A stretch of 64,000 nucleotides of DNA. Source: a virus. Lineage: Duplodnaviria > Heunggongvirae > Uroviricota > Caudoviricetes. Below the pieces are notes generated by a model. That model was not told the origin of the DNA and ran no database searches. It was given only the letters and a program-made list of their open reading frames with translations. Positions within the stretch are counted from its first letter, which is position 1, and every line of letters starts with the position of its first letter. The position numbers and the translations under genes were made by a program. Shown in pieces: positions 7,561 to 62,524 of the stretch. The stretch lies in IMG/VR virus record IMGVR_UViG_3300028591_000125. One strand, given 5' to 3'.

Positions 7561-7585
7561 TTTGTTTTAATTTTTAAGTTAATAT

Positions 7586-30589: not shown

Positions 30590-30714
30590 ATATAAAAAAT
30601 TTAAATATTAATAATTCATTTTACTAATTGTGTAATATAGCACTAAACTATACTACACAGATATAAGGAATTCAAAAGAAAAAAGGAAGAACATATTAGT
30701 TCCTCCTATATAAA

Positions 30715-31095: not shown

Positions 31096-31170
31096 ATCAA
31101 TTCAGTTTAAATTATTAAGTTTCATTCTATTAATAAGGAGTCCAGTTTATTTCGAGTGTGAAATCTTAAT

Positions 31171-31187
31171 TTCCTTATATATGTATG
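31171..31187 (+). promoter_or_regulatory. example of the conserved gene-start motif TTCCTTATATATGT(T)ATG (plus-strand copy)
   Basis: The motif ends 2 nt before the ATG of 31185..31727. The same 12-14-mer was located by eye more than 30 times, e.g. 14150, 22363, 26778, 37044, 45830, 59400, 61017 on plus. Confidence 0.6.
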
Positions 31188-31727: not shown

Positions 31728-32068
31728 GTAAATATGTACTTTTTCCGATTACGCCCGGATCTGATTATTTAACTATTGGAACAGTCTTAGAAAAAGGCGA
31801 AGATAAAATTAAGGTTCAAAATATCTCTACGCCTGCTTCAACTTGGACTTCTTTATGGCGTGAAATAAATGAACCTAAAAAACTCGCCTTAGAAGATAGA
31901 CTGGGAAAAGCTGTTGATTGTATAGGGCGTGTGATAAAAGTTGGAGATTTTTGTCTATACCTACACAACAAAGAAATATTAGAAGGTATAGTTGAAGAAA
32001 TTAACTCTGAACTTTGGGTTACTGTTGATGGGATTAAAGTTAGAAACGTTAGTACCTATATTATATGA
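31724..32068 (+). CDS. hypothetical protein
   Basis: 114 aa ORF. Confidence 0.5.
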   Translation: MSKYVLFPITPGSDYLTIGTVLEKGEDKIKVQNISTPASTWTSLWREINEPKKLALEDRLGKAVDCIGRVIKVGDFCLYLHNKEILEGIVEEINSELWVTVDGIKVRNVSTYII

Positions 32069-32856
32069 GTTATAGATATATACAACATTTTCCTGGACAA
32101 AGAGCATTAAATTGTAATGGAGTTCTTTTCTTTTTCAAAACCTTTTATTCAACTAAAATAGACTTAGACTTAAAATCTAAAACTGCTTTAATAGAATTAG
32201 AAAAACTTAATTCTTCTCTTTCAGCTTACTACGGAGTACTTTTTTACGATGAATTATTAATCTCATGCCCATTTGGATTATATAAATATTTATACTCTAA
32301 TCCAGATAACATAATTCCTCTTTACTCTTTTGATTCAGAGTATGAGAAATTATTTATATCAAAGGTTCCTGATAAATACATAGATTCAATAACTTATTCA
32401 GAAAATAAAACAATAGTAAAATTTTCACGCACACTATATGAGTTAGTTGATTGCGTAAAGTTTTGGGGTATCGATTCCTCACCAAGTCTGGATTTTCTCA
32501 TTCATTATTTACATAAATCAGAACATTGTTTCTATTTCTCTGATGATTTAGAAGTAAAGGATTTTGATCTTCTTAATTCTATCGCTATCAATAAAGATAA
32601 TATAATAACACACTATAAATATTATCTTGATGGCCATGATTTATATTCAATACATCTCTATGGAGCTCAACTTGGAAAGATAAAAAGTACATCATTTAAT
32701 GTAGCTATAAATCTTTACGCCTGGAGACAAGATGATAAACTATTTATATCAGATAACTCCGAACTAGTTATGTGTAGTCCATTTACTATACCATTTTGGA
32801 TATTACCAGAAATAAAAGATGGAGAGATTGAACAAATAGTATTAAAATATTTTTAA
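32065..32856 (+). CDS. hypothetical protein
   Basis: 263 aa ORF. Confidence 0.5.
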   Translation: MSYRYIQHFPGQRALNCNGVLFFFKTFYSTKIDLDLKSKTALIELEKLNSSLSAYYGVLFYDELLISCPFGLYKYLYSNPDNIIPLYSFDSEYEKLFISKVPDKYIDSITYSENKTIVKFSRTLYELVDCVKFWGIDSSPSLDFLIHYLHKSEHCFYFSDDLEVKDFDLLNSIAINKDNIITHYKYYLDGHDLYSIHLYGAQLGKIKSTSFNVAINLYAWRQDDKLFISDNSELVMCSPFTIPFWILPEIKDGEIEQIVLKYF

Positions 32857-32858
32857 TT

Positions 32859-33935
32859 ATGTTTGATATAATAAGAAACGAAGGTAGATTGTTGTTTGAA
32901 GGAATAAGAGGAAGTCATTTACACGGACTTAATACTGAAACCTCTGATATAGATCACTCAGGAATTTTTATAGCTCCTGAAGATCAAATACTAGGACTTC
33001 GTGTTGGTTACGTTAGATGTGTGGAATCAAAAAGTAAGGACGATGTTTGGAATGAACTTGAAAAATTATTTGAAGAGTTAGCTAAGAGTAATGAGAGTGC
33101 ACTTGAAACTTTATATACTCCAAAAGAATTAACCTTACACTATGATCCTGTACTCGATCCTCTTTTCAATTACAGAGATAACCTAATTACTAAGAGGTGT
33201 TTTCATTCTTTTGGTAATTATGCTTTATCTCAAATTAAAAAAGCAAAGGGACTAAAGAAACTGATTAATATAGACCCTGAAGAAATGAAAGTCCGAAAAT
33301 CAATCCTTCATTTCTGCATCGTTCTTGAGGGCGTTAAAACTATCCCCCTAAATGAATGGTTAGAACGTGAGGGCCTTGATGAAAAAAATTGTGGCCTTAG
33401 TAAATGTAATAAGGGGGTTGAACTTTACGCCCTATATTACGATGCTACAGGAACTAAGGAATATCGGGGTTTATATGAAGAAGGAAGCACACAACTAAAA
33501 CTAACCGCTATACCTAAAGGAGAAGAGCCCGTTTGTACTTTCCAATTTAATATCGACGCTTTCTCTGGACATTGTAGGGATTATAAGAGATATTGGGAGT
33601 GGGTTGAAAAAAGAAATCAGGAAAGATATGAACTCGAAAAAGGATATAACTTCAATGCTAAGAATATAAGTAATGCAGTTCGTCTTTGTACTATGGCTAA
33701 AGAACTTGCAAACGGAGAGGGTATGATTTTAAATAGAGCAGGTAGAGATAAAGATTTCCTGCTTAGTATTAAAAATCATGAATGTACGTTTGATGAGATT
33801 ATTAAGTACATAGAAAACCTACGAACTGAAATGCTTGAGGCCTTTGAGAAATCTAAACTACCTGAAGAACCCGATAAAAAAGAACTCCAAAATATCCTAG
33901 TTAAAATAAGAAAGGAATTCTACTCAAAAAAGTAA
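32859..33935 (+). CDS. Pol-beta-superfamily nucleotidyltransferase
   Basis: 358 aa ORF. N-terminal GSHLHGLNTETSDIDHSGIF fits the hG[GS]x9-13DhD NTase signature. It has a helical C-terminal domain. Confidence 0.5.
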   Translation: MFDIIRNEGRLLFEGIRGSHLHGLNTETSDIDHSGIFIAPEDQILGLRVGYVRCVESKSKDDVWNELEKLFEELAKSNESALETLYTPKELTLHYDPVLDPLFNYRDNLITKRCFHSFGNYALSQIKKAKGLKKLINIDPEEMKVRKSILHFCIVLEGVKTIPLNEWLEREGLDEKNCGLSKCNKGVELYALYYDATGTKEYRGLYEEGSTQLKLTAIPKGEEPVCTFQFNIDAFSGHCRDYKRYWEWVEKRNQERYELEKGYNFNAKNISNAVRLCTMAKELANGEGMILNRAGRDKDFLLSIKNHECTFDEIIKYIENLRTEMLEAFEKSKLPEEPDKKELQNILVKIRKEFYSKK

Positions 33936-34037
33936 GGGAGCTCAATTCCTTATAGATGAAAAAAAATAAAAATTAAAATGTAATCAAAACTAAAAATTTT
34001 AAACTATGAAGAAGAAATTTATTAAAAAACTTTAGAT

Positions 34038-34505
34038 ATGAATTGGAATTACATTTTAGAAGTGGGACTAAAACTGGCTGTTGCAGTCGGTGCTGGTTTC
34101 GCAGTGTTCATGGGAATTGAAAACGCTACTAAGAGAAATCAGATGAATGTAAATGTAGCTCAACCAAACCCAGATGGAACAAACAATGTAGGAGTTGAAC
34201 CAGTGAACAATAAATACACTGGCAACGAAAATGTAGTTGTGAGTGGCTTAAGAGCAGCTCAAAATACTTGTGGAAAATTATTTAATCTTACACAAGGATT
34301 AGTAACTGTGGTTGAAAGCGTTGGTTCTTTCACTAGCAGTAATAATGGAAACTATAGTTATCCAGATTATGGAGGCTATGGGTATTTTCCACAACAGCAG
34401 CAATCATGTGGTATCGGATGGAGACGCCGAAATCCATTTATTATCGAAGAGGTGCCTCTCGGAAATGCTGCACCTATAAATTATAATACTCAGTATCCTT
34501 ATTAA
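34038..34505 (+). CDS. membrane-anchored Gly/Asn/Tyr-rich protein
   Basis: 155 aa ORF with an N-terminal TM helix and a low-complexity GN..YGGYGYFPQQQQ tail. Confidence 0.45.
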   Translation: MNWNYILEVGLKLAVAVGAGFAVFMGIENATKRNQMNVNVAQPNPDGTNNVGVEPVNNKYTGNENVVVSGLRAAQNTCGKLFNLTQGLVTVVESVGSFTSSNNGNYSYPDYGGYGYFPQQQQSCGIGWRRRNPFIIEEVPLGNAAPINYNTQYPY

Positions 34506-34623
34506 ATAATTTTTATTAGTATGGTAGTAGTATTACAATTTATGGGTTTTGTGTCTAATTAGTGCTATATAGGAAATCAAAATTCTTATATAGCATTTAT
34601 TTTCCCCTAATACCCTTAATACT

Positions 34624-34893
34624 GTGAAAGGTATTTATGGGGTTTTTGTTTTAGATAAAGAATGGGTTATAATAAAAGCAGAACCTGAAAACATAAATAT
34701 AAAAGTTAGGTTTGATCTGAGTGAATTAATTTATGAAAAATCAGAAAAACTAAACGAAAAAGAATTATATGGGGTTTGTAAAGCTCTTAATGAAAATAGA
34801 ATACCAGAGTTTGATAGTCAAGAGTGTATGGCTTTGATTTTGGAAAAATATACAACTCAAACCCTAATATATGATATTAACCAGGACATTTAA
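34624..34893 (+). CDS. hypothetical protein
   Basis: 89 aa ORF. Confidence 0.4.
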   Translation: MKGIYGVFVLDKEWVIIKAEPENINIKVRFDLSELIYEKSEKLNEKELYGVCKALNENRIPEFDSQECMALILEKYTTQTLIYDINQDI

Positions 34894-34902
34894 TTTATTT
34901 AA

Positions 34903-35427
34903 ATGCCCATAAATTTTTTTAACATGAACAATGTAAAAAATCTATTAATGATTCTAACCTGGAGCATCCTAATTGGTTGGGTAGTTCATAGGGTAGAATT
35001 AAAACAAAACAAAACAACAGAAAGTCTTATAGTAGATGACCTGTTACAAGAATTACCTCAAGAAGAACCTCTACAAATTATAAACGTAGATAAAAGTTTT
35101 CATGGTAAATCAGTTACAGCCACATACTATAATTCTGTCCCTGAACAATGTTGGGGTGATCCTTTAGTCACTGCATCCGGAAAGAGAATTGATTTAGACC
35201 TGTTAGAGAATGAAGAAATAAAATGGATAGCAGTTTCTCGGGATATACTCAAGGAATTTAAATTTGGGACTAAGATTAAAGTAGTATGTAAAGAAGATCC
35301 GAGTATAAACGGAATTTATGAAATAGCTGACACCATGCATGAGAAATTTGAAAATAAAATAGATCTCTTGTGGCCCGTAGGAAAAAAGGGTCGAGGTAGG
35401 TGGACAGTCACTATTTATAAGGTATGA
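34903..35427 (+). CDS. 3D-domain (MltA-like) putative muralytic enzyme with N-terminal signal-anchor
   Basis: 174 aa ORF with an N-terminal hydrophobic helix. The segment TATYYN...GDPLVTASGKRID...IAVSRD...FGTKIKV...GIYEIADTM fits the 3D-domain pattern. Confidence 0.5.
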   Translation: MPINFFNMNNVKNLLMILTWSILIGWVVHRVELKQNKTTESLIVDDLLQELPQEEPLQIINVDKSFHGKSVTATYYNSVPEQCWGDPLVTASGKRIDLDLLENEEIKWIAVSRDILKEFKFGTKIKVVCKEDPSINGIYEIADTMHEKFENKIDLLWPVGKKGRGRWTVTIYKV

Positions 35428-35434
35428 GAAAAAT

Positions 35435-35471
35435 GACGCTCGAACGATAAAAGGGCGTCTCTTTTTTTTTT
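35435..35471 (+). terminator. intrinsic terminator
   Basis: GACGCTCGAACGATAAAAGGGCGTC followed by T10. Confidence 0.6.
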
Positions 35472-35505
35472 GCACCCTCTAATGTTTAATTTCCTTATAT
35501 TTGAA

Positions 35506-36366
35506 ATGGTTTATGTATATAAAGACAGTAAGAATAGATATACATTTTCAACAGAACCTATACCTGAGTTACAAGTTACTCTTCTATTACCTTGGGACTA
35601 TATACCCATTGAAAATATTAGACCGTGGAAAATATTAGGTATTAGTACAGATCTTTATAAGGCTAATGTTCTTCTTTACTTAGAACAATGGAAAGACTCT
35701 ACTACACCTCCACCCTCTGAAAAACTTGAAGTAATTTATAAAACACAGGCTGAGGAAATATTATCTGATTATAAAAAAATTATAGATATCTTAGTTTCTT
35801 TAGAATTAATAAAAGAACCTCAATATCCGATTAAATATAAAAAGTATATAACCTATGAATGTGATATACTTAATTATCTTCGTGAAACTTTGGGTGATTA
35901 TGTTTTCGATCTTTGTGAAAAATATAAAAACCTGGGGGAATTAAAAAAGAACTCATTAAAAAAATTATTAAAAATAAAAGGACGTGAAAACAAATTAGGA
36001 TTTTTGCAAACACTTGAGATTGATCTTGAATTTTTTACTTTCTTGCCTCCTTGGTTTAAATCTAATTACCAGGTTTTTGGAGAACAAGAAAAAACTGTAA
36101 GAAATCAAGATACAACAACTATAGAATACAGAGAACAAACTAGAGTTGATGGTCATATAGGTGAACCTCTTATTAAAGAAAATATTTATACTGTATTTTC
36201 TTATGGAGAAATTCTTTCTTCTAAAGAAATTAAAGAAAGATTAAAAACTCTTTATGATCGATTAAATATAAAAAGAACTCCTAAAGTTTCTGATTTGTTT
36301 AGTTATTTTAATGTAATGAGAACCTATTCAAGATTATATAGATTAGATAGAAATTATGGGACTTAA
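35506..36366 (+). CDS. hypothetical protein
   Basis: The ORF-track start at 35470 lies upstream of the motif. Motif TTCCTTATATTTGAAATG places the start at 35506 (MVYVYKD...). Confidence 0.5.
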   Translation: MVYVYKDSKNRYTFSTEPIPELQVTLLLPWDYIPIENIRPWKILGISTDLYKANVLLYLEQWKDSTTPPPSEKLEVIYKTQAEEILSDYKKIIDILVSLELIKEPQYPIKYKKYITYECDILNYLRETLGDYVFDLCEKYKNLGELKKNSLKKLLKIKGRENKLGFLQTLEIDLEFFTFLPPWFKSNYQVFGEQEKTVRNQDTTTIEYREQTRVDGHIGEPLIKENIYTVFSYGEILSSKEIKERLKTLYDRLNIKRTPKVSDLFSYFNVMRTYSRLYRLDRNYGT

Positions 36367-36814
36367 TAAATTATCTAGCATTGATATTGATGATCAAATA
36401 CAGGAAACTGATGATAGTTTTAGTAAAATAAAGAAAACTATTAATTGCGATCGAACTATAAAAATCGGAGAAAAAATATTTTCTAAGTTACTAGGAAAAT
36501 CACTGGTTGTAACTAAAAAGCTTTATGGAGTAACTAGATGTGATTCCTGTGCTTATCGAGAATTTTGTGTAGGAAAACATCAGGAATTTGTATCTATCCG
36601 ATTAAAGGAAGTTGGTAATTGTTCGGCTGCAAGAAGAGATGATGGGATTCCTGTCTTCTTTAAAGAGGTTGATAGGAAATATGAAATTGATTCTGACCTA
36701 TTAAATGACCTATCCTTTATATTGAAAGGCGCTAAAACTAAAGAAGATATTTTGGATTCAGTTAATGGTGCAATTTCTATATTAAATTTATATTCAGAAA
36801 CTAAGGAGACCTGA
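36356..36814 (+). CDS. hypothetical protein
   Basis: 152 aa ORF. Confidence 0.5.
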   Translation: MGLNKLSSIDIDDQIQETDDSFSKIKKTINCDRTIKIGEKIFSKLLGKSLVVTKKLYGVTRCDSCAYREFCVGKHQEFVSIRLKEVGNCSAARRDDGIPVFFKEVDRKYEIDSDLLNDLSFILKGAKTKEDILDSVNGAISILNLYSETKET

Positions 36815-36835
36815 AATCCTTATAAATAACAAGAT

Positions 36836-36906
36836 TGTCCTATCGTATAAAGGTAGTACAACAGATTTTGGTTCTGTTGGTCTTGGTTCGATTCCAGGTA
36901 GGACAA
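36836..36906 (+). tRNA. tRNA, anticodon UUG (Gln) by my fold; UUU (Lys) under an alternative anticodon-stem register
   Basis: Acceptor TGTCCTA/TAGGACA, D-stem GTAT/GTAC, anticodon stem ACAGA/TCTGT with loop TTTTGGT, T-arm CTTGG-TTCGATT-CCAGG. Confidence 0.6.
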
Positions 36907-36932
36907 CAATAAATTTTGAGAGTTTAAAAATT

Positions 36933-37007
36933 GGTGTGTTAGTTCAGTTTGGTTAGAATACATGCCTGTCACGCATGGGGTCACGGGTTCGAGTCCCGTA
37001 CACACCG
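36933..37007 (+). tRNA. tRNA-Asp (GUC)
   Basis: Acceptor GGTGTGT/ACACACC, anticodon stem CATGC/GCATG with loop CTGTCAC, T-loop TTCGAGT. Confidence 0.75.
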
Positions 37008-37062
37008 CATAAAAAAATAGATTGGATTAATTCCTTTCTATTTTTTATTTTCCTTATATATA

Positions 37063-37380
37063 ATGAAACTAAGTGGAAAATATAAATATGTTATCTATTT
37101 AAGATTTGAATATAATAATCTTTACCCTGGAATCACTGCTAGGGTTCAAAGTGGAATAATTATTTTTGTTAATTATCACAATACAGATGACGATCAACTT
37201 TATTATCTCATATTAAAAAATAAAATTGGAATACATAAAAAATTATCTAGGAAGGTAATTTATTCTATTTTAAAAAAATCAGGCAGCGCAACTTTTAGTT
37301 TAAATAATTTTCTTTCTTCTATTTTATCAATAAGAGATGAAGATGTACCAATAACAATACTAAGGAAAGAAAAAAGATAG
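37063..37380 (+). CDS. hypothetical protein
   Basis: 105 aa ORF. Motif TTCCTTATATATAATG. Confidence 0.45.
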   Translation: MKLSGKYKYVIYLRFEYNNLYPGITARVQSGIIIFVNYHNTDDDQLYYLILKNKIGIHKKLSRKVIYSILKKSGSATFSLNNFLSSILSIRDEDVPITILRKEKR

Positions 37381-37381
37381 A

Positions 37382-38086
37382 TTAATTTTCTATCTTTATT
37401 TTTTCTCCCGTTCTTAAATATCTAATCCCCTCATCATCATCTAACCAAAAACACTGCCTACAATCTAAGCATACAGTATTTCCTTCTATTCTCGGTACTT
37501 CTCTTTGTTGCGTGTGTCCTACTATCTGCTTCTCCCAGTCTGTAAATCGATACTCCCTTATATCAGACCAAACAGGAGAACCACCACGATCATCTCCTCC
37601 TCTATACCAAGAACAATAATTTAACGGCTTTATGATTCGACTTTTATCTAGGGTCTGAATCTCTTTGCCGGCTATATCTGAAATTCCTAGTCTCCCTATA
37701 TCCTCTAACCAGTATCTATTAAACCCGGCATGACTTAAGACCCAAGAACCAAGTCGTAAACCTAAATATAAATCCCCAGACTCTTTAAATAACGATAAAG
37801 CTGAATCAAATATAGAATAATCACACCTATCTCTACATATCTTAAGTTCTGGCCATATATAAGTACAGTCATGATTCCCTACTAAAAGCTTCACCCCAGG
37901 ATTTTTCTTCTTCACTTCTATAATCTCTGAAAAATTATATAAAGCTTCACAACCACTTATCCCTTCATGTTCATACGGGTCTAAGTAATCTCCTAAAAAC
38001 ACAGTAGGAACACCAGACTCTATGTACGATAACGCCTCTTTCCAAAAATTCCTTCCATGTACGTCAGGTATTATAATCAATTTCAT
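37382..38086 (-). CDS. Ser/Thr-type metallophosphatase (lambda-phosphatase/calcineurin-like)
   Basis: 234 aa ORF with DVHG, GDYLDPY and GNHD motifs. Confidence 0.65.
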   Translation of the reverse strand: MKLIIIPDVHGRNFWKEALSYIESGVPTVFLGDYLDPYEHEGISGCEALYNFSEIIEVKKKNPGVKLLVGNHDCTYIWPELKICRDRCDYSIFDSALSLFKESGDLYLGLRLGSWVLSHAGFNRYWLEDIGRLGISDIAGKEIQTLDKSRIIKPLNYCSWYRGGDDRGGSPVWSDIREYRFTDWEKQIVGHTQQREVPRIEGNTVCLDCRQCFWLDDDEGIRYLRTGEKIKIEN

Positions 38087-38315
38087 AATCGATCTTGTAT
38101 ATTGTATTACTACTTTGATCTATATAAATTAATCTCCTATCACCTTTTATTTTTCCAAATTCTATTAACTTCCTGACTAATTTTTTACTTAGCTTCTTCC
38201 TGATTAAATGATTAAATATATACCAGAAAAGAACAACTTTATTAGTATCATCCGTTATATATATTCTAGTATTTGGCTTATGATAAAATATACTATAATA
38301 AACTGTAACTATCAT
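38064..38315 (-). CDS. hypothetical protein, tandem paralog family D
   Basis: 83 aa ORF with the family motif KKLSKKLVRKLI. Confidence 0.45.
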   Translation of the reverse strand: MIVTVYYSIFYHKPNTRIYITDDTNKVVLFWYIFNHLIRKKLSKKLVRKLIEFGKIKGDRRLIYIDQSSNTIYKIDYEIDYNT

Positions 38316-48403: not shown

Positions 48404-48478
<75 letters not shown>

Positions 48479-50534: not shown

Positions 50535-50619
50535 TGGACAGGGAAGGACTTGAACCTCCAGAGCCGTTAAGGCACCTGATTTACAGTCAGGCCCGCTACC
50601 AATTACGGTATACCTATCC
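50535..50619 (-). tRNA. tRNA-Tyr (GUA), long variable arm (bacterial type)
   Basis: Reverse complement has acceptor GGATAGG/CCTGTCC and anticodon stem CCTGA/TCAGG with loop CTGTAAA, a 17-nt variable arm and T-loop TTCAAGT. The D-arm is atypical. Confidence 0.65.
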
Positions 50620-50644
50620 ATCATATTTATTATTTCATATTTTG

Positions 50645-50720
50645 CGGCCTTTCTTGGATTCGAACCAAGGACACCTTGATTAACAGTCAAGTGCTCTAAA
50701 ACCAACTGAGCTAAAAGGCC
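50645..50720 (-). tRNA. tRNA-Asn (GUU)
   Basis: Reverse complement: acceptor GGCCTTT/AAAGGCC, anticodon stem CTTGA/TCAAG with loop CTGTTAA, T-loop TTCGAAT. Confidence 0.75.
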
Positions 50721-50727
50721 AAATTTG

Positions 50728-50802
50728 TGGTCCTTGAGGGACTTGGACCCCCGACCCTCGCATTATGAGTGCGGTGCTCTAACCAAACTGAGCTAAAGGA
50801 CC
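50728..50802 (-). tRNA. tRNA-Met/Ile2 (CAU), elongator-type
   Basis: Reverse complement: acceptor GGTCCTT/AAGGACC, anticodon loop CTCATAA. The T-loop TCCAAGT deviates slightly from consensus. Confidence 0.6.
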
Positions 50803-50865
50803 TCGAAGTGCAAATACAGAGAAGGAGATTAAGCGAAGAAAAATTCTGTATAAGCACCTCTTTTG

Positions 50866-50946
50866 TACTTCCGGTGGGATTCGAACCCACAATGCTTTCG
50901 CACTGCATCCTAAGTGCAGCCTCTATACCAATTCGAGTACGGAAGC
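50866..50946 (-). tRNA. tRNA-Leu (UAG), type II
   Basis: Reverse complement: acceptor GCTTCCG/CGGAAGT, 3-bp D-stem, anticodon stem CTGCA/TGCAG with loop CTTAGGA, 12-nt variable arm, T-loop TTCGAAT. Confidence 0.7.
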
Positions 50947-50952
50947 GTTTTG

Positions 50953-51026
50953 AGCAGAAGATGGGATTCGAACCCACGAGATCCTGCTTGGAAGGCAGGT
51001 GCACTAGGCCTCTATGCGACTTCTGC
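50953..51026 (-). tRNA. tRNA-Gly (UCC)
   Basis: Reverse complement: acceptor GCAGAAG/CTTCTGC, anticodon stem CCTGC/GCAGG with loop CTTCCAA. Confidence 0.75.
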
Positions 51027-51042
51027 TTAATTCTTGTTTTTG

Positions 51043-51127
51043 CGGAGAGGGAGGGATTCGAACCCCCGGACCCGTGAAGGTCGGTGCTTTTCAAGAGCAC
51101 TGCCATAAACCACTCGGCCACCTCTCC
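51043..51127 (-). tRNA. tRNA-Ser (UGA), type II
   Basis: Reverse complement: acceptor GGAGAGG/CCTCTCC, anticodon stem GTGCT/AGCAC with loop CTTGAAA, long variable arm. Confidence 0.75.
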
Positions 51128-51135
51128 AAATTTTG

Positions 51136-51210
51136 TAGCCGGTAGGGGATTCGAACCCCTGATTTTGAGAATGAAAATCTCACGTCCTAGGCCAACTAGA
51201 CGAACCGGCC
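51136..51210 (-). tRNA. tRNA-Glu (UUC)
   Basis: Reverse complement: acceptor GGCCGGT/ACCGGCT, anticodon stem TGAGA/TCTCA with loop TTTTCAT, T-loop TTCGAAT. Confidence 0.7.
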
Positions 51211-53184: not shown

Positions 53185-54831
53185 ATGAGTGAATTTGAAA
53201 ATTTAGGAAAGCAAGATGAAATTAAATTGCTTAAATTCCCAGAGTGTATTCGAGCTAGAATAGGTATGTATTTAGGGGGCACTGAGTCTACCGATACATT
53301 ACTTAGAGAGATTGTCGATAATTCTGTGGATGAGTGTTACGTAGCTGCTAATCAGATTATAATTGATCGAGATATGAATGACTATATTCTAGTAGCAGAT
53401 AATGGTAGAGGTTTAAATATTGAATACTCTAAAGAACTACGTGATGGACAACCTGTAGTACAAGCAGATCTATCTATTTCAGAACTTCATTCAGGTTCTA
53501 AGTTTGTAGATAATAAACAAGCTACCGTTGGGATGAATGGGATAGGCTCTTCTGCGGTAAATGCGGTTTCCCAGAATTACATATTACTTTCTAGAATCAC
53601 TCCAAATAATTTTGATAAATCTACTAAAGAAGTATACGATTTATGGAATTCAGCTGGTCCTCGTAGTAAAAAAGATCTATTTTATATTGTATGGTATAAA
53701 AAGGGTTATAAATATTACGAAGGTGCTCTAAAGAAGGCTGATATAGAAAAATTGGTGTTTACGGAAGGAAAGAAAAAACGCGGAGCAACGTGGAAAGAAT
53801 TACCTTCCGGGATGTCAACGATTGTATTATTTCAGCCTGATTCCGATATTTTTGATAAGTCTGCATTAAAACCAGAATTACCAATAAAGAATTTACAGTA
53901 TTTTCTACTTATACAAGAAAAGTTTTATAAGAAGAAAGTTACTATAGATCTTGAAGGTACTGTTTTTACTAGTGCAGATACAACAACTTATCAATTTGAA
54001 TTCACAAAGAGATTAATACCAGAAGATACTAGCTTAAATGAACAGCTTGATCTTTATATAACGTTTGAAGCTGATCCTGAGTTAAATCCAAAAGTATATA
54101 CAGGTTCAGTTAATTCTTTGAATGTAGACTCTGGAGTTCATATTAGTTGGGCAGAGAGTTGTTTTATGGAGGCACTGAAAGCTGAATTTGGAATTAAACA
54201 CAAATATCTTACAAATGGATTAAAGATGTGTGTTGTAATTTTAGCAAGTGAGGCTGTATATAATTCTCAAACTAAAGAGAAATTAAAAGGATTAGCAAAA
54301 GTAAAACAATCTGACTTTGCACCACTGATTAAAGAGTTTCAGAGAATATTCAGAAAAAATCTAGAATATTGGAGTGAGCATGTAAATAGATTAAATTACT
54401 TAGCTGACTCTATGAAACATCTTGGTGCTGCAGAGAAAGCCCAGAAAATAATGGACGATGCTGCAGGTCGTGGTATGTATAGATCAAAAGCTGATCTAGT
54501 TGATGGTTTTAGTGATGCAACAGCTGGTCCTGATGATAGATGGAATTGTTCTATTTTTCTCACAGAGGGGGCATCAGCCGCAGGCGGCTTAAAGGCTGCA
54601 AGAAAAACAACCAAGTATGATGCAGTTATGCCACTACGAGGAAAAGTTAAAAATGTTTGCAATGATAATGCAAACCAGATGATGGACAATAAAGAATTTT
54701 ATACTATATTTAAAGTTATAGGACTTGGTATAGATATTAATAATGTCACATCAGGTTGTGAAACACCAGAGCAAGCATATGAAATGATAAAACAAAAAAC
54801 AAGATTTGGCAAAATAATTATAGCAACGGAT
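53185..54831 (+). CDS. type II DNA topoisomerase large (GyrB-like ATPase/TOPRIM) subunit, exon 1 of 3 (T4 gp39/gp60-like)
   Basis: GHKL ATPase N-terminus followed by the TOPRIM region EGASAAGG...KIIIATD. The reading frame runs into an in-frame stop 23 codons after the conserved D (KQKLSENIEIYSENPIVAENSR, stop). Confidence 0.75.
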
Positions 54832-55142
54832 AAACAAAAGTTGTCCGAGAATATAGAAATATATTCTGAGAATCCCATTGTTGCGGAAAACTCTCGTTAG
54901 GCTAAAAGTACAGTAAAGTGTAATAAGTTTTTAGATAGAGACAATTCGCTTAATTATAAAATTTTATAATTGACAACGACTATCCAGAAATGGAGTAGAG
55001 TAATAAGTCTTTTATGATTACTCGAAAGATGGGACCCCTAACGTAAAGACGAGGGTGATGATATAGTCTTGACACGCTCAGAGATGAGGTGAGATCTTAA
55101 CTGATCTATATTAAGAGTAGGCGACTTAATATAAAAAATTCG
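54832..55142 (+). mobile_element. group I intron 1 (311 nt, no ORF) in topoisomerase gene
   Basis: Exon ends in U and the intron ends in G. Candidate IGS GUCCGA at intron +11 pairs with exon ACGGAU. Exon junction is IIIATD|ADEDG. In-frame stops are at 54898 and 55128. Confidence 0.65.
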
Positions 55143-55356
55143 GCTGATGAAGATGGTCTTGCCATCCAAAACGGATTGATGTATGCATTTATGAAGTTTG
55201 CCAGATTTATGATAGATTTTGGTTTAGTTTATATAGCTGAATCACCAATATTTGAACAGAATGGACAATATTTTTATCCAAGTAGTGAAAGACAGGCTGG
55301 AACACAGTTTCCAGTTGGTCTAGATACATCAAAACATTTTAGACGTTTTAAAGGGT
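55143..55356 (+). CDS. topoisomerase II large subunit, exon 2
   Basis: Encodes ADEDGLAIQNGLMYAFMKFARFMIDFGLVYIAESPIF...RFKGL. This matches GyrB [37 protein letters not shown]...RYKGL. There is no start codon between the upstream stop and DEDG. Confidence 0.7.
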
Positions 55357-56964
55357 TAACGGCATAGCCCCGTTACATAGTAATATGTAAATGAAAATTC
55401 CGTTAAAAGCTGGGAACTCCTGTTAGGTTAAGAGTACAATAAAGTGTAACAATCTCTTAAATAGGGACAATCAGCAGTTATATAGCAATAAAATAAATAA
55501 AGATTATGATTAGAAATGATGTAAAATTATATTTACAGGAGAATAATTTAAATATTGATGACATATTTCTAAAACACAGAGATACTATTGATCCTCCAAA
55601 TTATAGGGTTGGTAGAATCTTTAGAGATAATGTCGAATCAATCTTTGTATTAAATGAAGTAAATGGTCTTATTATGGATTATTTCTATGATGATGTTCCA
55701 GAAATTTTAGAATTTGATATAAGTAATTATAATAATTCTCTTGTAATTAAAGATGGTAATATAGAATCGGGAAAATATTTTATTAGTAGAGATGGTAAAT
55801 TAAAATCTATATATACTAATAAATATTTAACAATTCAATCAAATGAACTATATCCGATTTATAATATTAAATTAATAAATTCAAAAAATAGATTAGGACA
55901 TAGTAAGAGGTTACAAATTCATAGAATAGTAGCTTCCGTGTTCGTTCCTAATTTCAATCCAAAAGATAGAACTTTAGTTGATCATATTAATAGAGATAAG
56001 AATGATTACTCAATAACAAATCTTCGATGGGTTACCCAAAAAGAAAATGCAAATAATTCTCCAAAAAAGAGTTTTATAAAGAATAGGCAATATGTATCCT
56101 ATAAAGATAAAGAACTTACTATAAAAGTAGGTACATACTCTGACGAGGATTTATTAAATCATCCTAGATATAATAGAGGTGTTATATTAGATTCTCTGTA
56201 TAGCAGCAATTATCACTATGGTCTATATTGGAAAATAGTTGATTTAAATTTATTAAATTATTTATCATCTATTGGAAAAACGTTTGAAGATATAGATGAT
56301 AGTTTATGGGTTAATACTAGATTACCAGGTGTTATGGCTCATCCTTTTGGAATTTTAAAAATAACCACTCAAAAGAAAAGTCATAATACAACATATATAA
56401 CGTGTGGTTATGAAAGACATGAAAAATATAAATATCTTACAGTTAGTATCCAAGGAACTAATTATCTTGTTCATAGAATAATAGCAGAAGCTTTTATAAA
56501 TAAAAATAAAGAAATAAAATTTCCATATGAAGTGGATCATATTTCTACAATTCCTACAGACAATAGAGTTGAAAATCTTAAAATATGTACTCACTTAGAA
56601 AATGTTAATAATCCGAGTACAAAATTAAAATTATCTACACCTGTAATTGCTGAAGGAAAAGTATTTAATTCTATCTCAGATTGTGCTGATTATTATAAAG
56701 TAGCAAGATCGACTATAGTTAATTGGATAAGAAAAGGTAAAGATGGTTTTAGTTTTAAAAATTAAAAATAAAAATTGCTATATAACTTCAACGACTATCC
56801 AGAAATGGAGTAGGGTAATAAGTCTTTAATGATTACTCGAAAAGCGGAAAATCTATGATTTAAATTATAGATTATAGATTAAGATATAGTCTGCTCTCAT
56901 GGGAAATCATGAGGAGAGAAATCTCATGTTAAGAATTAAAAGACGACTTAACATAAACATAAGG
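55357..56964 (+). mobile_element. group I intron 2 (1608 nt) carrying an HNH homing endonuclease ORF
   Basis: The exon ends at U in AAAGGGU and the intron ends at G. Candidate IGS GCCC at +11. Its 5' and 3' core segments are homologous to intron 1. Confidence 0.65.
55506..56765 (+). CDS. intron-encoded HNH homing endonuclease (tandem HNH_3/AP2-like modules)
   Basis: 419 aa ORF. Two copies of the HNH core: VDHINRDKNDYSITNLRWVTQKENANN and VDHISTIPTDNRVENLKICTHLENVNN. It sits inside intron 2. Confidence 0.7.
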   Translation: MIRNDVKLYLQENNLNIDDIFLKHRDTIDPPNYRVGRIFRDNVESIFVLNEVNGLIMDYFYDDVPEILEFDISNYNNSLVIKDGNIESGKYFISRDGKLKSIYTNKYLTIQSNELYPIYNIKLINSKNRLGHSKRLQIHRIVASVFVPNFNPKDRTLVDHINRDKNDYSITNLRWVTQKENANNSPKKSFIKNRQYVSYKDKELTIKVGTYSDEDLLNHPRYNRGVILDSLYSSNYHYGLYWKIVDLNLLNYLSSIGKTFEDIDDSLWVNTRLPGVMAHPFGILKITTQKKSHNTTYITCGYERHEKYKYLTVSIQGTNYLVHRIIAEAFINKNKEIKFPYEVDHISTIPTDNRVENLKICTHLENVNNPSTKLKLSTPVIAEGKVFNSISDCADYYKVARSTIVNWIRKGKDGFSFKN

Positions 56965-57149
56965 TAGGTTCATTAAATCGTGATGATGTTTATAACGCGT
57001 TTTATGATCCAAGCAAACGTCGACTATTCCAAGTTACGACTGATGGAATGGATTTTGCTATGAAACTGGTAGAAGATATTGATGCCAGAAAAGAATTATT
57101 ATATGATAAAAATATTTTAAGTAATCCTTATAATTTTAAAGATCTTTGA
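56965..57149 (+). CDS. topoisomerase II large subunit, exon 3
   Basis: GSLNRDDVYNAFYDPSKRRLFQVTTDGMDFAMKLVEDIDARKEL matches the GyrB C-terminal [28 protein letters not shown]. Exon sum is 2046 nt, 681 aa. Stop TGA is at 57147. Confidence 0.65.
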
Positions 57150-57151
57150 TT

Positions 57152-58498
57152 ATGGGAAGAAAAAAGAAAGAATGTGTTGAATTACCATTAGCAACACCTG
57201 AATTATTATATAAACCTGTTGGACAAATAGCTGAAGAGTGTTATACATTCTACGGTGCTTATGTAAATAATTTTAGAGCAATCGCAAATGTAGCTGATGG
57301 AATGAAGGTTTCTTATAAAAGATTAGTATGGGCAGCTTTACAATACCCAAAAGGAAAAGATGTACCAACTATGAACTTAGTTTCATCATTATCTCGTTGG
57401 CATCCACATAACACGTCGGCTTGTGAAGACCTGAATGCACAATTAGTAAAATCTGGTGTATTTTCTGGTTCCGGATTTTTTGGAAATAAACAAATTGATG
57501 GTGTAGATTGTCCACACGCAGCTACTAGGTATACTAAGAATAGATTATCAGATTTGTATTGGGATATTATAGGAGATCTAGTAAAAGAAGTTCCTATGGT
57601 AGAATCCCCTCAAGGTGAAATGGAGCCAATTAATATACCGCTTCCATTACCACTTTGTTTATATCTGAAATCTTTGGTAACCGGTCTTGGAGTAGGAGTT
57701 ATGTGTATATATCCTAACTTCTCACCAAAATCTTTATATCAAGCTTATATACACGATAATCCTGATTTGCTTGAACCTAATATGAACATTTTTATAGATA
57801 AAGCAAATTCAGAGTTAAGAAGATTATGGGAAACTGGTAAAGGTAGAGTTATATACTCTTACAAAATATCCAGATCAATGAGCCATGATGGTAAAAGTGA
57901 AGGTATCTTATTTGAAGGTGATACTGGAATTTTTACACCGAGATTAGGAAAATTTGATAAGCTAGTCAGTGAAGGAAAAATTTATATAGAAGACCTTACT
58001 GATGAGAATGGACCAAAGCTTTTCGTGGGTAGAGTTCCTGGCGCAAAAGGTATAACAGTAGAGGATATAGAAGGAATAGCAAGAAAAGTTTGTTATGATT
58101 CTACTACATATAACCTCAATGTAACCAATGGAGAAACTTGTTTTAGAATTCCCCTAAAAGACTGGTTAGATTATACTTACAAAAATTACATAGAACTAAT
58201 TACAAAAGTCAATCAAAAGCGTATAGAAAAATGTAAGTTTAATATATCAGTTTTAGAAGCTTTGCCTGTAATTGCTGATTATGTTCTCAATAAAAATCCT
58301 AAAGCTGATGATAAAGAAATTCAGAAAGTTTTAGGGTATAGTGAAGAAGTAATTAGTGTAGTTATGTCCAAGCCTATTTCCTATTTACGTAAGAATAAAG
58401 ATACGAGTGATAGGATAAAGAAGCTTAAAGATGAATTGAAGGAGCTTAAGAGGTTTGATCCTGTTAAGTATACCGAAGAAATAATAAATAAACTTTGA
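57152..58498 (+). CDS. type II DNA topoisomerase medium (GyrA-like, T4 gp52-like) subunit
   Basis: 449 aa ORF. Its length matches T4 gp52 and it follows the large-subunit gene directly, as in T4-like phages. Start ATG at 57152 overlaps the upstream stop (TGATTATG). The ORF-track start at 57146 is a TTG. Confidence 0.7.
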   Translation: MGRKKKECVELPLATPELLYKPVGQIAEECYTFYGAYVNNFRAIANVADGMKVSYKRLVWAALQYPKGKDVPTMNLVSSLSRWHPHNTSACEDLNAQLVKSGVFSGSGFFGNKQIDGVDCPHAATRYTKNRLSDLYWDIIGDLVKEVPMVESPQGEMEPINIPLPLPLCLYLKSLVTGLGVGVMCIYPNFSPKSLYQAYIHDNPDLLEPNMNIFIDKANSELRRLWETGKGRVIYSYKISRSMSHDGKSEGILFEGDTGIFTPRLGKFDKLVSEGKIYIEDLTDENGPKLFVGRVPGAKGITVEDIEGIARKVCYDSTTYNLNVTNGETCFRIPLKDWLDYTYKNYIELITKVNQKRIEKCKFNISVLEALPVIADYVLNKNPKADDKEIQKVLGYSEEVISVVMSKPISYLRKNKDTSDRIKKLKDELKELKRFDPVKYTEEIINKL

Positions 58499-60968: not shown

Positions 60969-61036
60969 TTATGAGAAAATCGTAGTCGGTAATTAATTTT
61001 TTGCAGTCGAAAAGCATTAATTTCCTTATACATGAT

Positions 61037-62524
61037 ATGGAAAAGATTATTGAAAAATGGCAAATACTGATTAAAGCTTGTATTGATTATTATGTCAATT
61101 CTCTTCCTACCGGTCTAAGTGATGCTGAGTTTGATGAGCTTGAACGTAGGGCCAAGGAAGAAGACAACTTTAATGCTAGACTTTATGTTTTCGAAAATTA
61201 CACTAAGGGAACTAAAGTTGAAAATAATTATATCGAAAAAATAAAGAAAACGAAAGTGCCTGGTGATAAGACTATGTTAAATGCGATTATAGACTTTCAG
61301 GCACAAGTAGGAGAGAAGATTTATGCAGATTTGAAGTATGATGGATCGAGTATAGCAATTTATGTAGATCCTAAGACTGGAAAACCAATTCGAGAGGTGA
61401 CTGTAGGTAATATACACACAGTTGATTCTAAGAAGGGTGTTTCTGGGGAGCCTGGTATAGATCAATCCTGGAAATTAGCTGAGTTTTTACCCAAGCAGTT
61501 CCCAAAAGGTATTGTAGCTATTCAGGCTGAGGCTTTAATAGATTGTACTTTATTAGATGAGCCAGAGAAAGCTAGACAAAGAGCAAATGGACTTATCAAT
61601 TCTAAATACTGCGATACTTCAATACTTACCTTACGAGCCTATAGATATTACACCGATGATTCTCCGGCGGGTATAGCTCTTAGGAATATGGATTATAGAG
61701 ACGTCCTTAAATCCTTTGAGACAATCCGTAATGAAGAAGGATATATAAAATTTGCTCCCGCCGATGTATTTACGGTGGATGAATTAGGCTCAGTTCCAGA
61801 ATATACCGAGAAAGACATGACAATCACATCTACAGGTACTTTCCTTAATGATGGTTGGGTGTTATATAGTGAAAAAGGAATTTGTCTCGGGGCACTAAAG
61901 TTTGCTGGAGCTGGTTCGAGTAGTGAAGGTGTAATTAAGACTACTGTTCGAGGAATACAATGGAATAGTCAAGTCTCTAAAGGGAAAGATTCATGGTCTG
62001 CAAATGTCTTAATTGATCCAGTTACAGTAAAAGGCATAGAAATTAAAAAACCTAGTGCCGGAAGTGTAGGAAAGCTTGTGAAAAATAACATAACACCAGG
62101 AGCTGAGGTTAGTATAATCCTAGCAAACTCCACTATTCCTATGGTTGGTGAAGTTTTTAAAGGTGGTGATGGTAATTATTCATGGCCAACTTGTTCATGT
62201 GGCTGGAAATTTAGTGAATCTGATATATATGGATCAAACCTTAAATGTGGAAATCCGTTATGTCAGGAAAGGTTAGATAGAATGAGAAGTTATCTATCTA
62301 GTACCACAACCTTAGATTTGAATAAGTTTTTAGTTATAGACAGATTTAAGTGGGAAAACACTGATGTATCTATAGAAACCTTATTAAATCTCGTTAAAGA
62401 AGAAAAAGAAGAGGAGTATCATAAATATCTACTTAGTTTTATGAATACTGATCTTCTTAAGAGGAACCTTGAATTAGTTTGGAAAGCTTCTTACATTTTA
62501 TTAAGAGAGTGTTATGAAAGTTAA
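61037..62524 (+). CDS. NAD-dependent DNA ligase (LigA)-like protein
   Basis: KxDG nucleotidyltransferase motif ADLKYDGSSIAIYV. The C-terminal Cys4 cluster SWPTCSCGW...LKCGNPLCQERL resembles the LigA zinc finger. The start was taken at the in-frame ATG after the motif TTCCTTATACATGAT. Confidence 0.5.
   Translation: MEKIIEKWQILIKACIDYYVNSLPTGLSDAEFDELERRAKEEDNFNARLYVFENYTKGTKVENNYIEKIKKTKVPGDKTMLNAIIDFQAQVGEKIYADLKYDGSSIAIYVDPKTGKPIREVTVGNIHTVDSKKGVSGEPGIDQSWKLAEFLPKQFPKGIVAIQAEALIDCTLLDEPEKARQRANGLINSKYCDTSILTLRAYRYYTDDSPAGIALRNMDYRDVLKSFETIRNEEGYIKFAPADVFTVDELGSVPEYTEKDMTITSTGTFLNDGWVLYSEKGICLGALKFAGAGSSSEGVIKTTVRGIQWNSQVSKGKDSWSANVLIDPVTVKGIEIKKPSAGSVGKLVKNNITPGAEVSIILANSTIPMVGEVFKGGDGNYSWPTCSCGWKFSESDIYGSNLKCGNPLCQERLDRMRSYLSSTTTLDLNKFLVIDRFKWENTDVSIETLLNLVKEEKEEEYHKYLLSFMNTDLLKRNLELVWKASYILLRECYES

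Follow-up and report, generated by a model that had tools for sequence, protein, structure and literature searches.

Two inserts that resemble each other interrupt a single phage topoisomerase gene, and the question raised by this locus is what they are, how they are related, and whether one of them arose as a copy of the other, as an earlier note on this DNA suggested. In the 64,000-nt stretch of viral DNA analysed here (the window), the host gene is, judged by its alignments, that of a phage type IIA topoisomerase large subunit (GyrB/T4 gp39-like), split by two introns, with every part on the plus strand. Exon 1 (53185..54831), delimited by the ORF list, the in-frame spliced translation and the GyrB/ParE alignment, ends in KIIIATD, the base at the splice site being a U; its alignment partners are GyrB/ParE and the T4 gp39-gp60 chains, and intron-less homologs continue unbroken at this point. 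Exon 2 (55143..55356; 71 codons plus 1 nt) extends from ADEDGLAIQ to RFKG and the first base of a Leu codon and has no start codon of its own, and exon 3 (56965..57149) extends from (L)GSLNRDD to NPYNFKDL and the stop codon, being 98% identical to exon 3 of L101 (L-numbers denote relatives throughout). Once 54832-55142 (311 nt; intron 1, W_i1) and 55357-56964 (1608 nt; intron 2, W_i2) are removed, an in-frame GyrB/gp39-like subunit of 681 aa is obtained, whose alignment to GyrB/ParE is unbroken over the two junctions (Toprim IIATD|ADEDG and RFKGL|G). The Toprim domain holds both inserts, with 214 nt between them, at the highly conserved motifs TD|ADxDG (site C, at Toprim TD|AD) and KGL|G (site D), the latter insert falling within the Leu codon (T|TA).

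Fold and covariation class both inserts as group I introns of structural type IA2, predicted to be self-splicing. The comparative structure, built with 9 relatives, runs from P2 to P9.2, includes the P3/P7 pseudoknot and comprises 73 pairs in 15 helices; scored by nhmmer and hand-curated pair counts, pairing is kept in 97.5% of cells, falling to 37-47% once the partners are slid, with compensatory changes on both sides in 49 of the 73 pairs, and the observed values were reached by none of 500 shuffles. The minimum free energy fold of the intron 1 sequence alone recovers the same helices (z = -3.4). In this ORF-less intron, which occupies site C (54832..55142), the internal guide sequence (IGS; 54843-54847) pairs in P1 as CGGAU/GUCCG and is followed by P2 (54848-54867), P3 (54873-54878/55029-55034), P6 (54950-54973), P7 (54978-54982/55064-55068), P7.1 (54983-54994), P7.2 (54999-55022), P8 (55035-55055), P9 to P9.2 (55075-55132) and the terminal G (55142). 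Intron 2, at site D, has its ribozyme in two halves. The 5' half (55357..55489, from P1 to the 5' strand of P6) holds the IGS (55367-55370), P2 (55373-55390), the 5' strand of P3 (55398-55403), P4/P5 (55409-55475) and the 5' strand of P6 (55476-55489). The 3' half (56774..56964) holds the 3' strand of P6 (56774-56787), P7 (56793-56797/56887-56891), P7.1 (56798-56809), P7.2 (56814-56837), the 3' strand of P3 (56844-56849), P8 (56850-56873), P9 to P9.2 (56894-56954) and the terminal G (56964). P7 is invariantly GACUA/UAGUC, and all 16 topoisomerase-gene introns compared have an exon U before them and a G at their end. Guide and exon sequences covary from site to site (CGGAU/GUCCG, CAGAU/GUCUG and CUGAU/GUCAG, and further GGGU/GCCC, AGGAU/GUCCU and CGGGU/GCCCG).

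As for their class, Michel and Westhof reportedly define IA2 by extra P7.1 and P7.2 helices between P7 and the 3' strand of P3, together with P2 and the peripheral helices P9.1 and P9.2. P7.1 (helix 8) and P7.2 (helices 9-10) do stand in that place in this family, and all covary, as do P9.1 and P9.2; the assignment was made by comparison with the definition. The group I intron classes are summarised elsewhere (PMC3984707). The Rfam group I model Intron_gpI (RF00028) gave no match, either in the whole window at the gathering score or in 54700-57100 at E <= 10; because the covariation evidence is strong, we put this miss down to a model that is not sensitive enough for the intron subgroup. The case also shows the Rfam group I model to overlook an abundant phage intron family. 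The Rfam scans otherwise returned chance microRNA and snoRNA matches only.

The Rfam result could also be taken to mean that the inserts are not introns at all, and that the gene is made in three separately translated pieces or is interrupted by inteins or junk. There is a precedent in T4, where the mobA insertion breaks the gene of the topoisomerase large subunit up into genes 39 and 60 (PMC2988022), so that there, as here, a mobile HNH element targets a functionally critical region of a phage type II topoisomerase large subunit. T4 genes 39 and 60, however, contain no intron and yield two polypeptides, whereas in the window the coding sequence would be restored in the RNA. Exons 2 and 3 lack start codons as well as a ribosome-binding context, site D lies inside a codon, the inserts are out of frame or rich in stops, and a complete group I fold is backed by covariation. 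We therefore give inserts other than introns hardly any credence.

Given that both inserts are group I introns, how close are they to each other? The segments 54974-55028 and 56789-56843, which the earlier note put at about 93% identity, match at 52 of 55 positions (94.5%). Compared with shuffles, global alignment of the ribozyme parts scores z = 19.7, and z = 10.5 remains once this 55-nt block is deleted, the remainder being 68% identical; the similarity therefore does not stem from AT-rich low complexity, and the proposed homology of the two inserts as members of one group I family is borne out. Over their full length, the ribozymes are 64% identical in a MAFFT alignment and 74% pairwise. 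The proposed alignment of the ends is weak: in the multiple alignment, the 5' ~45 nt (P1-P2) and the 3' tails (from P9 onwards) share only ~48% identity, and they match in structure rather than in sequence. P1-P2, P8 and P9 range from 40 to 48%. The 55-nt block itself consists of a 25-nt core and the P7.2 hairpin. The core is invariant throughout the family (it is also 100% identical between the two introns of L100), and 23 of its nucleotides recur exactly in 44 unrelated IMG/VR viral contigs. Within the window, a search by regex and nhmmer found no family intron beyond these two, and a 28-nt degenerate P5 pattern had no match in IMG/VR.

These numbers bear directly on whether the pair arose by recent intragenic duplication or ectopic homing, with intron 1 a new copy of intron 2 minus the ORF, or intron 2 an intron 1 that recently acquired one. 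The near-identical block, the shared architecture with its significant overall similarity, and the presence of both introns in one gene at so short a distance would all be expected of such an event. The block is mostly universal core, however, and each intron has a much closer relative at its own site in another phage than it has in its neighbour: intron 1 shares 86% identity with its site-C counterpart in L100, and intron 2 shares 84, 82 and 79% with its site-D counterparts in L100, L102 and L098, respectively. The pair itself, an ORF-less site-C intron and a site-D intron with the endonuclease, also occurs in L100, whose host gene is ~74% identical in amino acids over exon 1, and has an equivalent in the more diverged L098 (57-67% by exon), where the ORF-less intron sits at site C''; the split between introns 1 and 2 thus predates these phages. 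Nor are the flanking exon tracts of L100 and L098 near-identical to those of the window, which argues against recent transfer from the window's lineage. Taken together, a recent duplication appears very improbable. The equation of intron 2 with intron 1 plus an ORF accordingly survives only in part: both belong to the same family, intron 1 indeed lacks any ORF, and the ORF of intron 2 is inserted in a loop, but the ribozymes are too far apart, each being nearer to its same-site relative. The ORF-less counterpart of intron 2 is an L052-type site-D intron, whose P6 (AGUUA-GAAA-UAACU) equals the base of the intron 2 P6 stem.

If the introns are not a recent duplicate, they could have been acquired horizontally and independently at sites C and D from different donors, with no exchange within the gene and with a merely coincidental match in P7.2. 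Site-specific lineages do exist, the core is conserved in unrelated phages, and distribution is sporadic, close relatives having neither intron, only that at C, only that at D, or both. Intron-less alleles are found at 82, 76 and 71% amino acid identity (L047-L051, with L047/L048 at 82%), and the intron-less L054 is 94.5% identical in nucleotides to the intron-bearing L046. L102 has the site-D intron with the endonuclease but no site-C intron, and ORF-less introns occur alone in L052 and L077, so that the two introns are not obligatorily linked. Yet lineages cross sites. In neighbour-joining trees of introns and endonucleases, which carry no support values, the site-D intron of L046 falls together with intron 1 and the L100 site-C intron, and the introns of L052 (site D) and L053 (site C), which are 80% identical and do not differ in a P2 segment, form another group; likewise, the L077 site-C intron is 89% identical to the first L104 intron at site C''. 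The 161-aa ORF of this L104 intron was considered as a remnant of the double-HNH gene and rejected as unrelated. Internal helices speak against independence as well. P7.1 is identical within genomes and different between them (the window and L100 versus L098). In P7.2 (~24 nt), introns 1 and 2 are each other's best match at 92%, whereas same-site orthologs reach 58-83% (for intron 1, 83% with the second intron of L098 and 59% with its own ortholog in L100); it is the sole part most similar within the window genome, and only in the window does a site-C intron carry a site-D-type P7.2 stem. To go by the ~6-8 positions that are informative and a single close ortholog at site C, P7.2 was probably homogenised locally, by the copying of a short patch between the two window introns. 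Wholly independent acquisition is thus improbable, if less so than recent duplication.

We consider it likely, instead, that the topoisomerase gene holds two IA2 group I introns, one of them mobile by way of a tandem-HNH enzyme, which are old paralogs of one mobile family dedicated to this gene. The earlier suggestion of duplication or homing within a single gene would then be right in that lineages have moved between its two sites, though not in the sense of a recent copy. Both the C and the D lineage are shared with other rumen and gut phages. When 50,697 phage records were searched with the gene by blastn, no close relative came up, and only the 5' half of intron 2 matched, to an ORF-less intron of Clostridioides phages (76-79%). 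The annotation of a Staphylococcus phage match, H67, was uninformative.

The enzyme is encoded in the P6 loop of intron 2 (55506..56765; 419 aa), closed by a 14-bp stem (55476-55489/56774-56787), in keeping with the proposed placement of a two-HNH ORF in a peripheral loop; in every ORF-bearing member of the family, the ORF lies in P6. It consists of an N-terminal MIR.D...IMDYFYDD region, HNH module 1 (D159-H160...N172...N181/N184), HNH module 2 (D344-H345...N353/N357...N366/N369) and a C-terminal helix-turn-helix. Pfam HNH_3 is found twice, the halves scoring 35.1 and 34.6 bits separately against a gathering score of 24.8, and I-HmuI (1u3e) is matched by both profile (E = 2.9e-16) and fold (E = 7.8e-7). 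The helix-turn-helix matches the I-TevI DNA-binding domain (1i3j) in Foldseek with a probability of 0.99, Pfam HTH_17 matches the ORF weakly, and PF20987 (I-TevI_DNA-bd) is found in homologs. On these matches, the protein is a predicted I-HmuI-like HNH homing endonuclease and, by its architecture, a tandem variant. The ORF is intact, and its dN/dS of 0.14-0.20 indicates purifying selection.

This tandem enzyme might be a single-site nickase like I-HmuI, in which one module is a dead DNA-binding or structural repeat, or the gene might be decaying; we regard this as possible but doubtful. I-HmuI (174 aa) has one HNH module and nicks one strand (PMC2988022), whereas the window protein carries two complete modules per chain; the catalytic H, D-H and N columns of both do not vary among 21 homologs, the most distant of them 33% identical (H139, H160 and N172; H323, D344, H345, N353, N357, N366 and N369), with D159 and N184 at least 90% conserved, dN/dS is ~0.2 in both halves, and each half passes the Pfam threshold separately. 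We raise, equally tentatively, the idea of a single-chain enzyme that makes double-strand breaks, one strand per module, in which one gene would serve both introns by co-conversion and would hop between the two P6 loops and a free-standing position. In L046 the arrangement is reversed, with the endonuclease in the site-C intron and an ORF-less site-D intron; in L108 and L109 the same endonuclease family is free-standing just upstream of the topoisomerase gene; and 14 of the 15 endonuclease homologs whose context was examined, the window's included, lie inside or directly upstream of this gene. The P6 loop also occurs with a different, PD-(D/E)XK-like endonuclease. Searches of the literature for tandem, double or two-HNH homing endonucleases turned up only papers on CBASS Cap5, Argonaute-HNH and TIGR-TasH.

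Our model of old paralogs would operate as follows. The internal guide of each intron would pair with the last 4-5 exon nucleotides, and guanosine-initiated two-step splicing would then restore the 681-aa protein. In a mixed infection, judging by the behaviour of the family, the enzyme would cut or nick intron-less topoisomerase alleles near site D, and recombinational repair would copy intron 2 into the cut allele. [quoted passage not shown] Nucleotide and third-position identity among intron-bearing alleles gave no exon signature of co-conversion tracts near sites C and D (the window and L046 share a high identity in exon 2, which is equally seen in the intron-less L054, and third-position identity near the sites is not clearly raised), so that the hitch-hiking of intron 1 is something we infer. 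Intron 1 comes from a site-C lineage and intron 2 from a site-D lineage; across the family, introns and the endonuclease gene have switched among sites C, C'' and D, and introns have swapped internal domains by recombination.

Several known systems resemble this locus in part. Landthaler et al. are said to have reported in 2002 that nrdE of Staphylococcus phage Twort has two self-splicing group I introns. One of these encodes the HNH enzyme I-TwoI, and Twort orf142 has three related introns. Here, as in nrdE, an essential DNA-metabolism gene of a large phage has more than one IA-type intron, one with an HNH ORF and another without; unlike in nrdE, the host region is a topoisomerase Toprim domain, the endonuclease has two HNH modules, and the comparative data of the family show the endonuclease in either intron or free-standing beside the gene. 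With I-HmuI and I-HmuII of the SPO1/SP82 DNA polymerase introns the likeness is that of the enzyme: I-HmuI, also encoded in a phage group I intron, is its best match in sequence and fold and shares the N-terminal beta region, the HNH core and the C-terminal helix-turn-helix, but the window protein has the tandem repeat of the module and an extra ~65-aa N-terminal region. The IA2 introns of T4 (td, nrdB and nrdD) share the P7.1/P7.2 architecture and an endonuclease ORF looped from a peripheral helix, which is P6 in td and nrdB, but they differ in host genes, in enzyme families (GIY-YIG for I-TevI/II; HNH for I-TevIII, which makes its double-strand break by dimerising) and in that each gene has one intron. 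Homing of the T4 introns proceeds by double-strand-break repair, in which the flanking exons are co-converted (PMC2988022). In collaborative or trans homing, a free-standing endonuclease acts with an ORF-less intron, as for F-CphI/psbA and for mobE with the nrdB intron (PMC3984707, PMC2790892). ORF-less introns alongside an endonuclease encoded elsewhere are seen here as well, and the free-standing copies of L108 and L109 fit the proposed route from free-standing to intron-encoded endonuclease; the candidate helper in the window, however, is encoded by the adjacent intron, inside the one topoisomerase gene. Finally, the Jug (jumbo gut) phages have ~18 small group I introns per genome (PMC12363816), and a jumbo-contig topoisomerase, ~43-51% identical to that of the window, has short inserts (172 to ~215 nt) at other sites of the gene, one of them two codons from site C and with the same guide sequence. 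Jug introns are minimal (~200 nt), without P7.1/P7.2 or ORFs, in contrast to the full-size IA2 introns of the window with their endonuclease.

Phage group I introns carrying HNH endonucleases are textbook knowledge, as are genes with several introns, and the core finding is therefore ordinary. Its most interesting part is the uncharacterised tandem-HNH enzyme. The characterised relatives of this endonuclease nick one strand only, and the way in which a nick leads to homing is acknowledged to await an explanation (PMC2988022), for which a natural tandem enzyme offers a direct experimental handle; such an enzyme might also serve engineered nucleases as a compact scaffold. Moreover, the allele set of this one gene covers nearly every proposed stage of the mobile-intron life cycle, from empty sites and ORF-less introns to endonuclease introns at either of two sites, a PD-(D/E)XK-like endonuclease in the same P6 loop, and the same HNH family free-standing beside the gene. 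If the reading of a single-chain, hopping enzyme were true, this gene family would represent a natural series for the assembly of mobile introns.

The first 549 residues of a GyrB/T4 gp39-like topoisomerase subunit are encoded by an ORF at 53185-54900, which then runs into stop codons; joining 53185-54831, 55143-55356 and 56965-57149 yields an in-frame 681-aa protein, whose alignment with solved GyrB/ParE chains is unbroken over both junctions ("kiiiatDADeDGlaiq" against "kivlmaDADvDGqhi" at the first, "hfrrfKGLGslnrdd" against "giqrYKGLGEmdake" at the second). Frame and alignment therefore place intron 1 at 54832-55142 (311 nt), between D549 and A550 at the TD|AD junction of the Toprim domain (site C), and intron 2 at 55357-56964 (1608 nt), one base into the L621 codon at the KGL|G junction (site D), the outer coordinates already proposed in an earlier note on this DNA. 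Both inserts are preceded by an exon U and end in G. The GyrA/gp52-like partner gene lies downstream (57146-58498). The window, from a large phage, has 31% G+C and also carries genes for an NAD-ligase-like protein (61001-62524), a 911-aa Lon-like ATP-dependent protease homolog (18271-21009) and ten tRNAs, of which seven form a single cluster just upstream of the topoisomerase region (tRNA regions 50537-51210 and 48407-48478, minus strand; 36836-37007, plus strand). The relatives nearest to it stem from bovine, rumen and gut metagenomes.

Since the Rfam group I model (RF00028, Intron_gpI) gave zero matches in 54700-57100 even at E <= 10, intron structure was tested comparatively, with further alleles of the gene collected by searches with the spliced protein and the endonuclease as queries. 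From a nine-ribozyme alignment, RNAalifold predicts P2, P3, P4, P5, P5a, P7.1, P7.2, P8, P9, P9.1 and P9.2; the invariant P7 pseudoknot was added before pairs were counted. Across the nine ribozymes, 97.5% of cells were pairing, as opposed to 37-47% with partners slid by 1-3 columns, 49 of 73 pairs had changed on both sides (9-17 when slid), and none of 500 shuffles matched the observed values. Guide and exon also vary together by insertion site (CGGAU/GUCCG, CAGAU/GUCUG, CUGAU/GUCAG, GGGU/GCCC, AGGAU/GUCCU, CGGGU/GCCCG), and intron 1 folded alone forms the same helices (z = -3.4). A group I fold of both window introns is strongly supported by this covariation. In their family the stretch from P7 to the 3' strand of P3 contains P7.1 and P7.2, an arrangement that is the hallmark of subgroup IA2 (T4 td, SPO1, Twort type). 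The peripheral loop to which the HNH ORF had been assigned is that of P6, closed in intron 2 by a perfect 14-bp stem (55476-55489/56774-56787); the ORF occupies the same loop in every ORF-bearing relative. Within P8, intron 2 has a short tandem duplication (56866-56880, TATAGATT-ATAGATT); the related locus L101 has an otherwise near-identical intron that lacks it.

The earlier note read the introns as homologs, intron 2 being intron 1 plus an HNH ORF, that arose by duplication or homing within one gene. The observation itself was correct: the two 55-nt segments are identical at 52 of 55 positions, and the ribozyme parts align with z = 19.7 relative to shuffles and still with z = 10.5 and 68% identity once that block is deleted, so the similarity is real and does not reflect AT-rich low complexity, although the match over the first 60 nt and over the tails is poorer than claimed, at only ~48% identity. 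On sequence grounds, however, the pair is not a recent duplicate. The two introns are 64% identical in a 17-sequence alignment (74% in the best pairwise one), whereas intron 1 is 86% identical to the site-C intron of the related locus L100, and for intron 2 the identity to site-D introns is 84% (L100), 82% (L102) and 79% (L098). By domain, the pair is 48% identical in P1-P2, 72% in P3-P5, 26% in P6, 100% in J6/7-P7-P7.1, 92% in P7.2, 40% in P8 and 48% from P9 to the end. The J6/7-P7-P7.1 block is family-wide, being just as identical in both L100 introns, with a 23-nt core (ACGACTATCCAGAAATGGAGTAG) exact in 44 unrelated IMG/VR contigs, and is therefore uninformative on recency. In P7.2 the window introns are each other's best match (same-site orthologs, 58-83%), and intron 1 has the GUAAU/AUUAC stem type of site-D introns (window, L101, L098), unlike the UAGC/GCUA of other site-C introns. 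This could be a short gene-conversion patch from intron 2 to intron 1, a reading that is tentative because informative positions are few.

The "intron 1 plus ORF" formula is likewise only partly correct: an ORF was inserted in the P6 loop, but, judged by its P6 and P9 sequences, the true ORF-less counterpart of intron 2 is a site-D intron of the type found in L052. The P6 of L052 (AGUUA-GAAA-UAACU) equals the basal part of the P6 stem in intron 2, and identity between the P9 domains is 70% by the multiple alignment (74% by the smaller, nine-sequence one). In L046 the site-C intron bears the endonuclease, and the P6 hairpin of intron 1 looks like the P6 stem of that intron with the ORF gone and the stem closed up.

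Movement within one gene does hold for the family, though not for the recent origin of the window pair. In a neighbour-joining ribozyme tree (no support values) insertion sites are not monophyletic, and the site-D intron of L046 groups with the site-C introns of the window and L100; the L052 (D) and L053 (C) introns are 80% identical, their P2 segment completely so, and those of L077 (C) and L104 (its first, at site C'', two codons downstream of C) 89% identical. Domains are also mosaic, since P9-P9.2 of the L077 intron and of the first introns of L046 and L104 matches an unrelated Clostridioides phage intron. From these sequences, the family's history is therefore one of site switches within one gene and recombination between sister introns. 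The two introns of L104 (1756-2623 and 2847-4385) have distal P6 stems of the same sequence (GATTAGTTAAAAAA ... AAAAACTAATC) enclosing unrelated ORFs, a 161-aa one of unknown function and a 395-aa double-HNH one, which suggests an exchange of ORF cassettes through P6 flanks. An unannotated ORF-less intron of the same family occurs in Clostridioides phage AR1086-1 (L001 3000-3288; OR397124.1 ~31582-31870, 5' boundary approximate), where it apparently interrupts a large hypothetical gene (CDS 29715-31598 and 31899-38111).

Topoisomerase alleles among the relatives span many intron states. Intron-less ones are 82% (L047/L048), 76% (L049/L050) and 71% (L051) identical to the window protein, and L054 lacks introns yet is 94.5% identical in nucleotides to intron-bearing L046. 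A site-D intron alone occurs with the endonuclease (L102, 80% aa identity; L107) or without an ORF (L052), and a site-C intron alone without an ORF (L077), with the endonuclease (L106, L110) or with an unrelated PD-(D/E)XK/TnsA-like ORF (L053). The window's arrangement, an ORF-less site-C intron plus an endonuclease in the site-D intron, recurs in L100 and, but for a first intron at site C'', in L098 and L103; L046 has the reverse, with the endonuclease in the C intron and an ORF-less D intron. Among ten alleles compared at site D, all three with an intron there keep a T at the splice position, and several empty alleles have a C. The unrelated ORF (351 and 318 aa) lies in the same P6 loop of same-family introns in L053 (7630-9018) and, five codons downstream, in L059 (266-1546); its features are a Cys-rich motif and a weak TnsA-like/PD-(D/E)XK match (DUF7487, Tn7_TnsA-like_N), so a second endonuclease family has invaded this loop. 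At the Toprim EGDSA motif (aa ~460), an in-frame insertion (L103 ~1802-2242, L083 ~7318-7626), with a weak Intein_splicing match in the called L103 product, is probably a mini-intein, so the same gene would host inteins besides introns.

The 419-aa ORF (55506-56765) is intact, and each half alone scores above the Pfam threshold for its HNH_3 domain. Module 1 matches I-HmuI (1u3e) by profile (E 2.9e-16), as does the predicted fold (pLDDT 83; Foldseek E 7.8e-7), and the C-terminus of that fold resembles the I-TevI DNA-binding domain (Foldseek probability 0.99). In 21 homologs, down to 33% identity, H139, H160, N172, H323, D344, H345, N353, N357, N366 and N369 are invariant, and D159 and N184 are at least 90% conserved. 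Against four orthologs dN/dS is 0.14-0.20, and at ~0.2 in each half both modules are therefore under selection. Context was examined for fifteen family members (12 database proteins and those of the window, L046 and L057), and 14 lie in or next to the topoisomerase gene, only P0020 being elsewhere: nine within site-D introns, four within site-C introns and one (L108) free-standing immediately upstream. L109, one of the nine, has a second, free-standing copy. These free-standing genes (P0013 and P0019; L108 3001-4224, L109 3001-4104) directly precede the topoisomerase start codon, and no ribozyme sequence flanks them. No C-terminal helix-turn-helix is present in the P0017-P0019 clade. A neighbour-joining protein tree mixes site-C with site-D copies. 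A library-wide search returned 35 clusters at E <= 1e-30 and many more 350-450-aa proteins that align over both modules, some with 4-6 repeats; across sequence space the tandem architecture is thus common. Literature searches found no paper describing a tandem-HNH homing endonuclease. The characterised relatives I-HmuI, I-HmuII, MobA and MobE nick a single strand (PMC2988022), and a title in that paper's reference list calls I-BasI a nicking enzyme; with two conserved modules per chain, one may speculate that the present enzyme cuts both strands.

Onto the anatomy, RNA structure, polymorphism and selection on the ORF documented here, the families concerned allow a cycle to be projected. Both introns would self-splice by the two-step guanosine pathway; in mixed infections the endonuclease would cleave empty alleles, and repair would then copy the intron and co-convert flanking exons (PMC2988022, PMC3984707). 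Intron 1, 214 bp from site D, could be carried along with intron 2. L102 has the D intron alone, so a site-C partner is not required. We found no co-conversion signature in the topoisomerase alleles.

Group I introns with an HNH endonuclease in a phage gene are a known type, to which the window adds another example. Among the closest analogs are the T4 IA2 introns, the SPO1/SP82 introns encoding I-HmuI and I-HmuII, collaborative and trans homing, the T4 mobA insertion, which splits the same gene, and Twort nrdE, with two introns in one gene, one of which reportedly encodes an HNH enzyme. Jug phages, with topoisomerases ~43-51% identical to the window's, have small introns, reported at ~206 nt (PMC12363816), and the short inserts (172 to ~215 nt) found in jumbo-phage versions of the topoisomerase gene, at conserved sites other than the window's, look like these. 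The 172-nt insert, after DAD| (aa 551; L073 7591-7762, also L074, L076 and L096), is a minimal group I intron with the guide GUCCG/CGGAU of window intron 1 and without P7.1/P7.2; others, of ~205-215 nt, lie at aa ~107-117 and at aa 462/464 (EG|DSA) (L075 ~6343-6547; L079-L095 ~7324-7538 or equivalent). Rfam-based annotation pipelines will overlook the widespread family of phage introns to which the window's two belong. The most interesting features of the finding are the tandem-HNH enzyme and, within a single gene, a natural series of intron and endonuclease states that is unusually complete.
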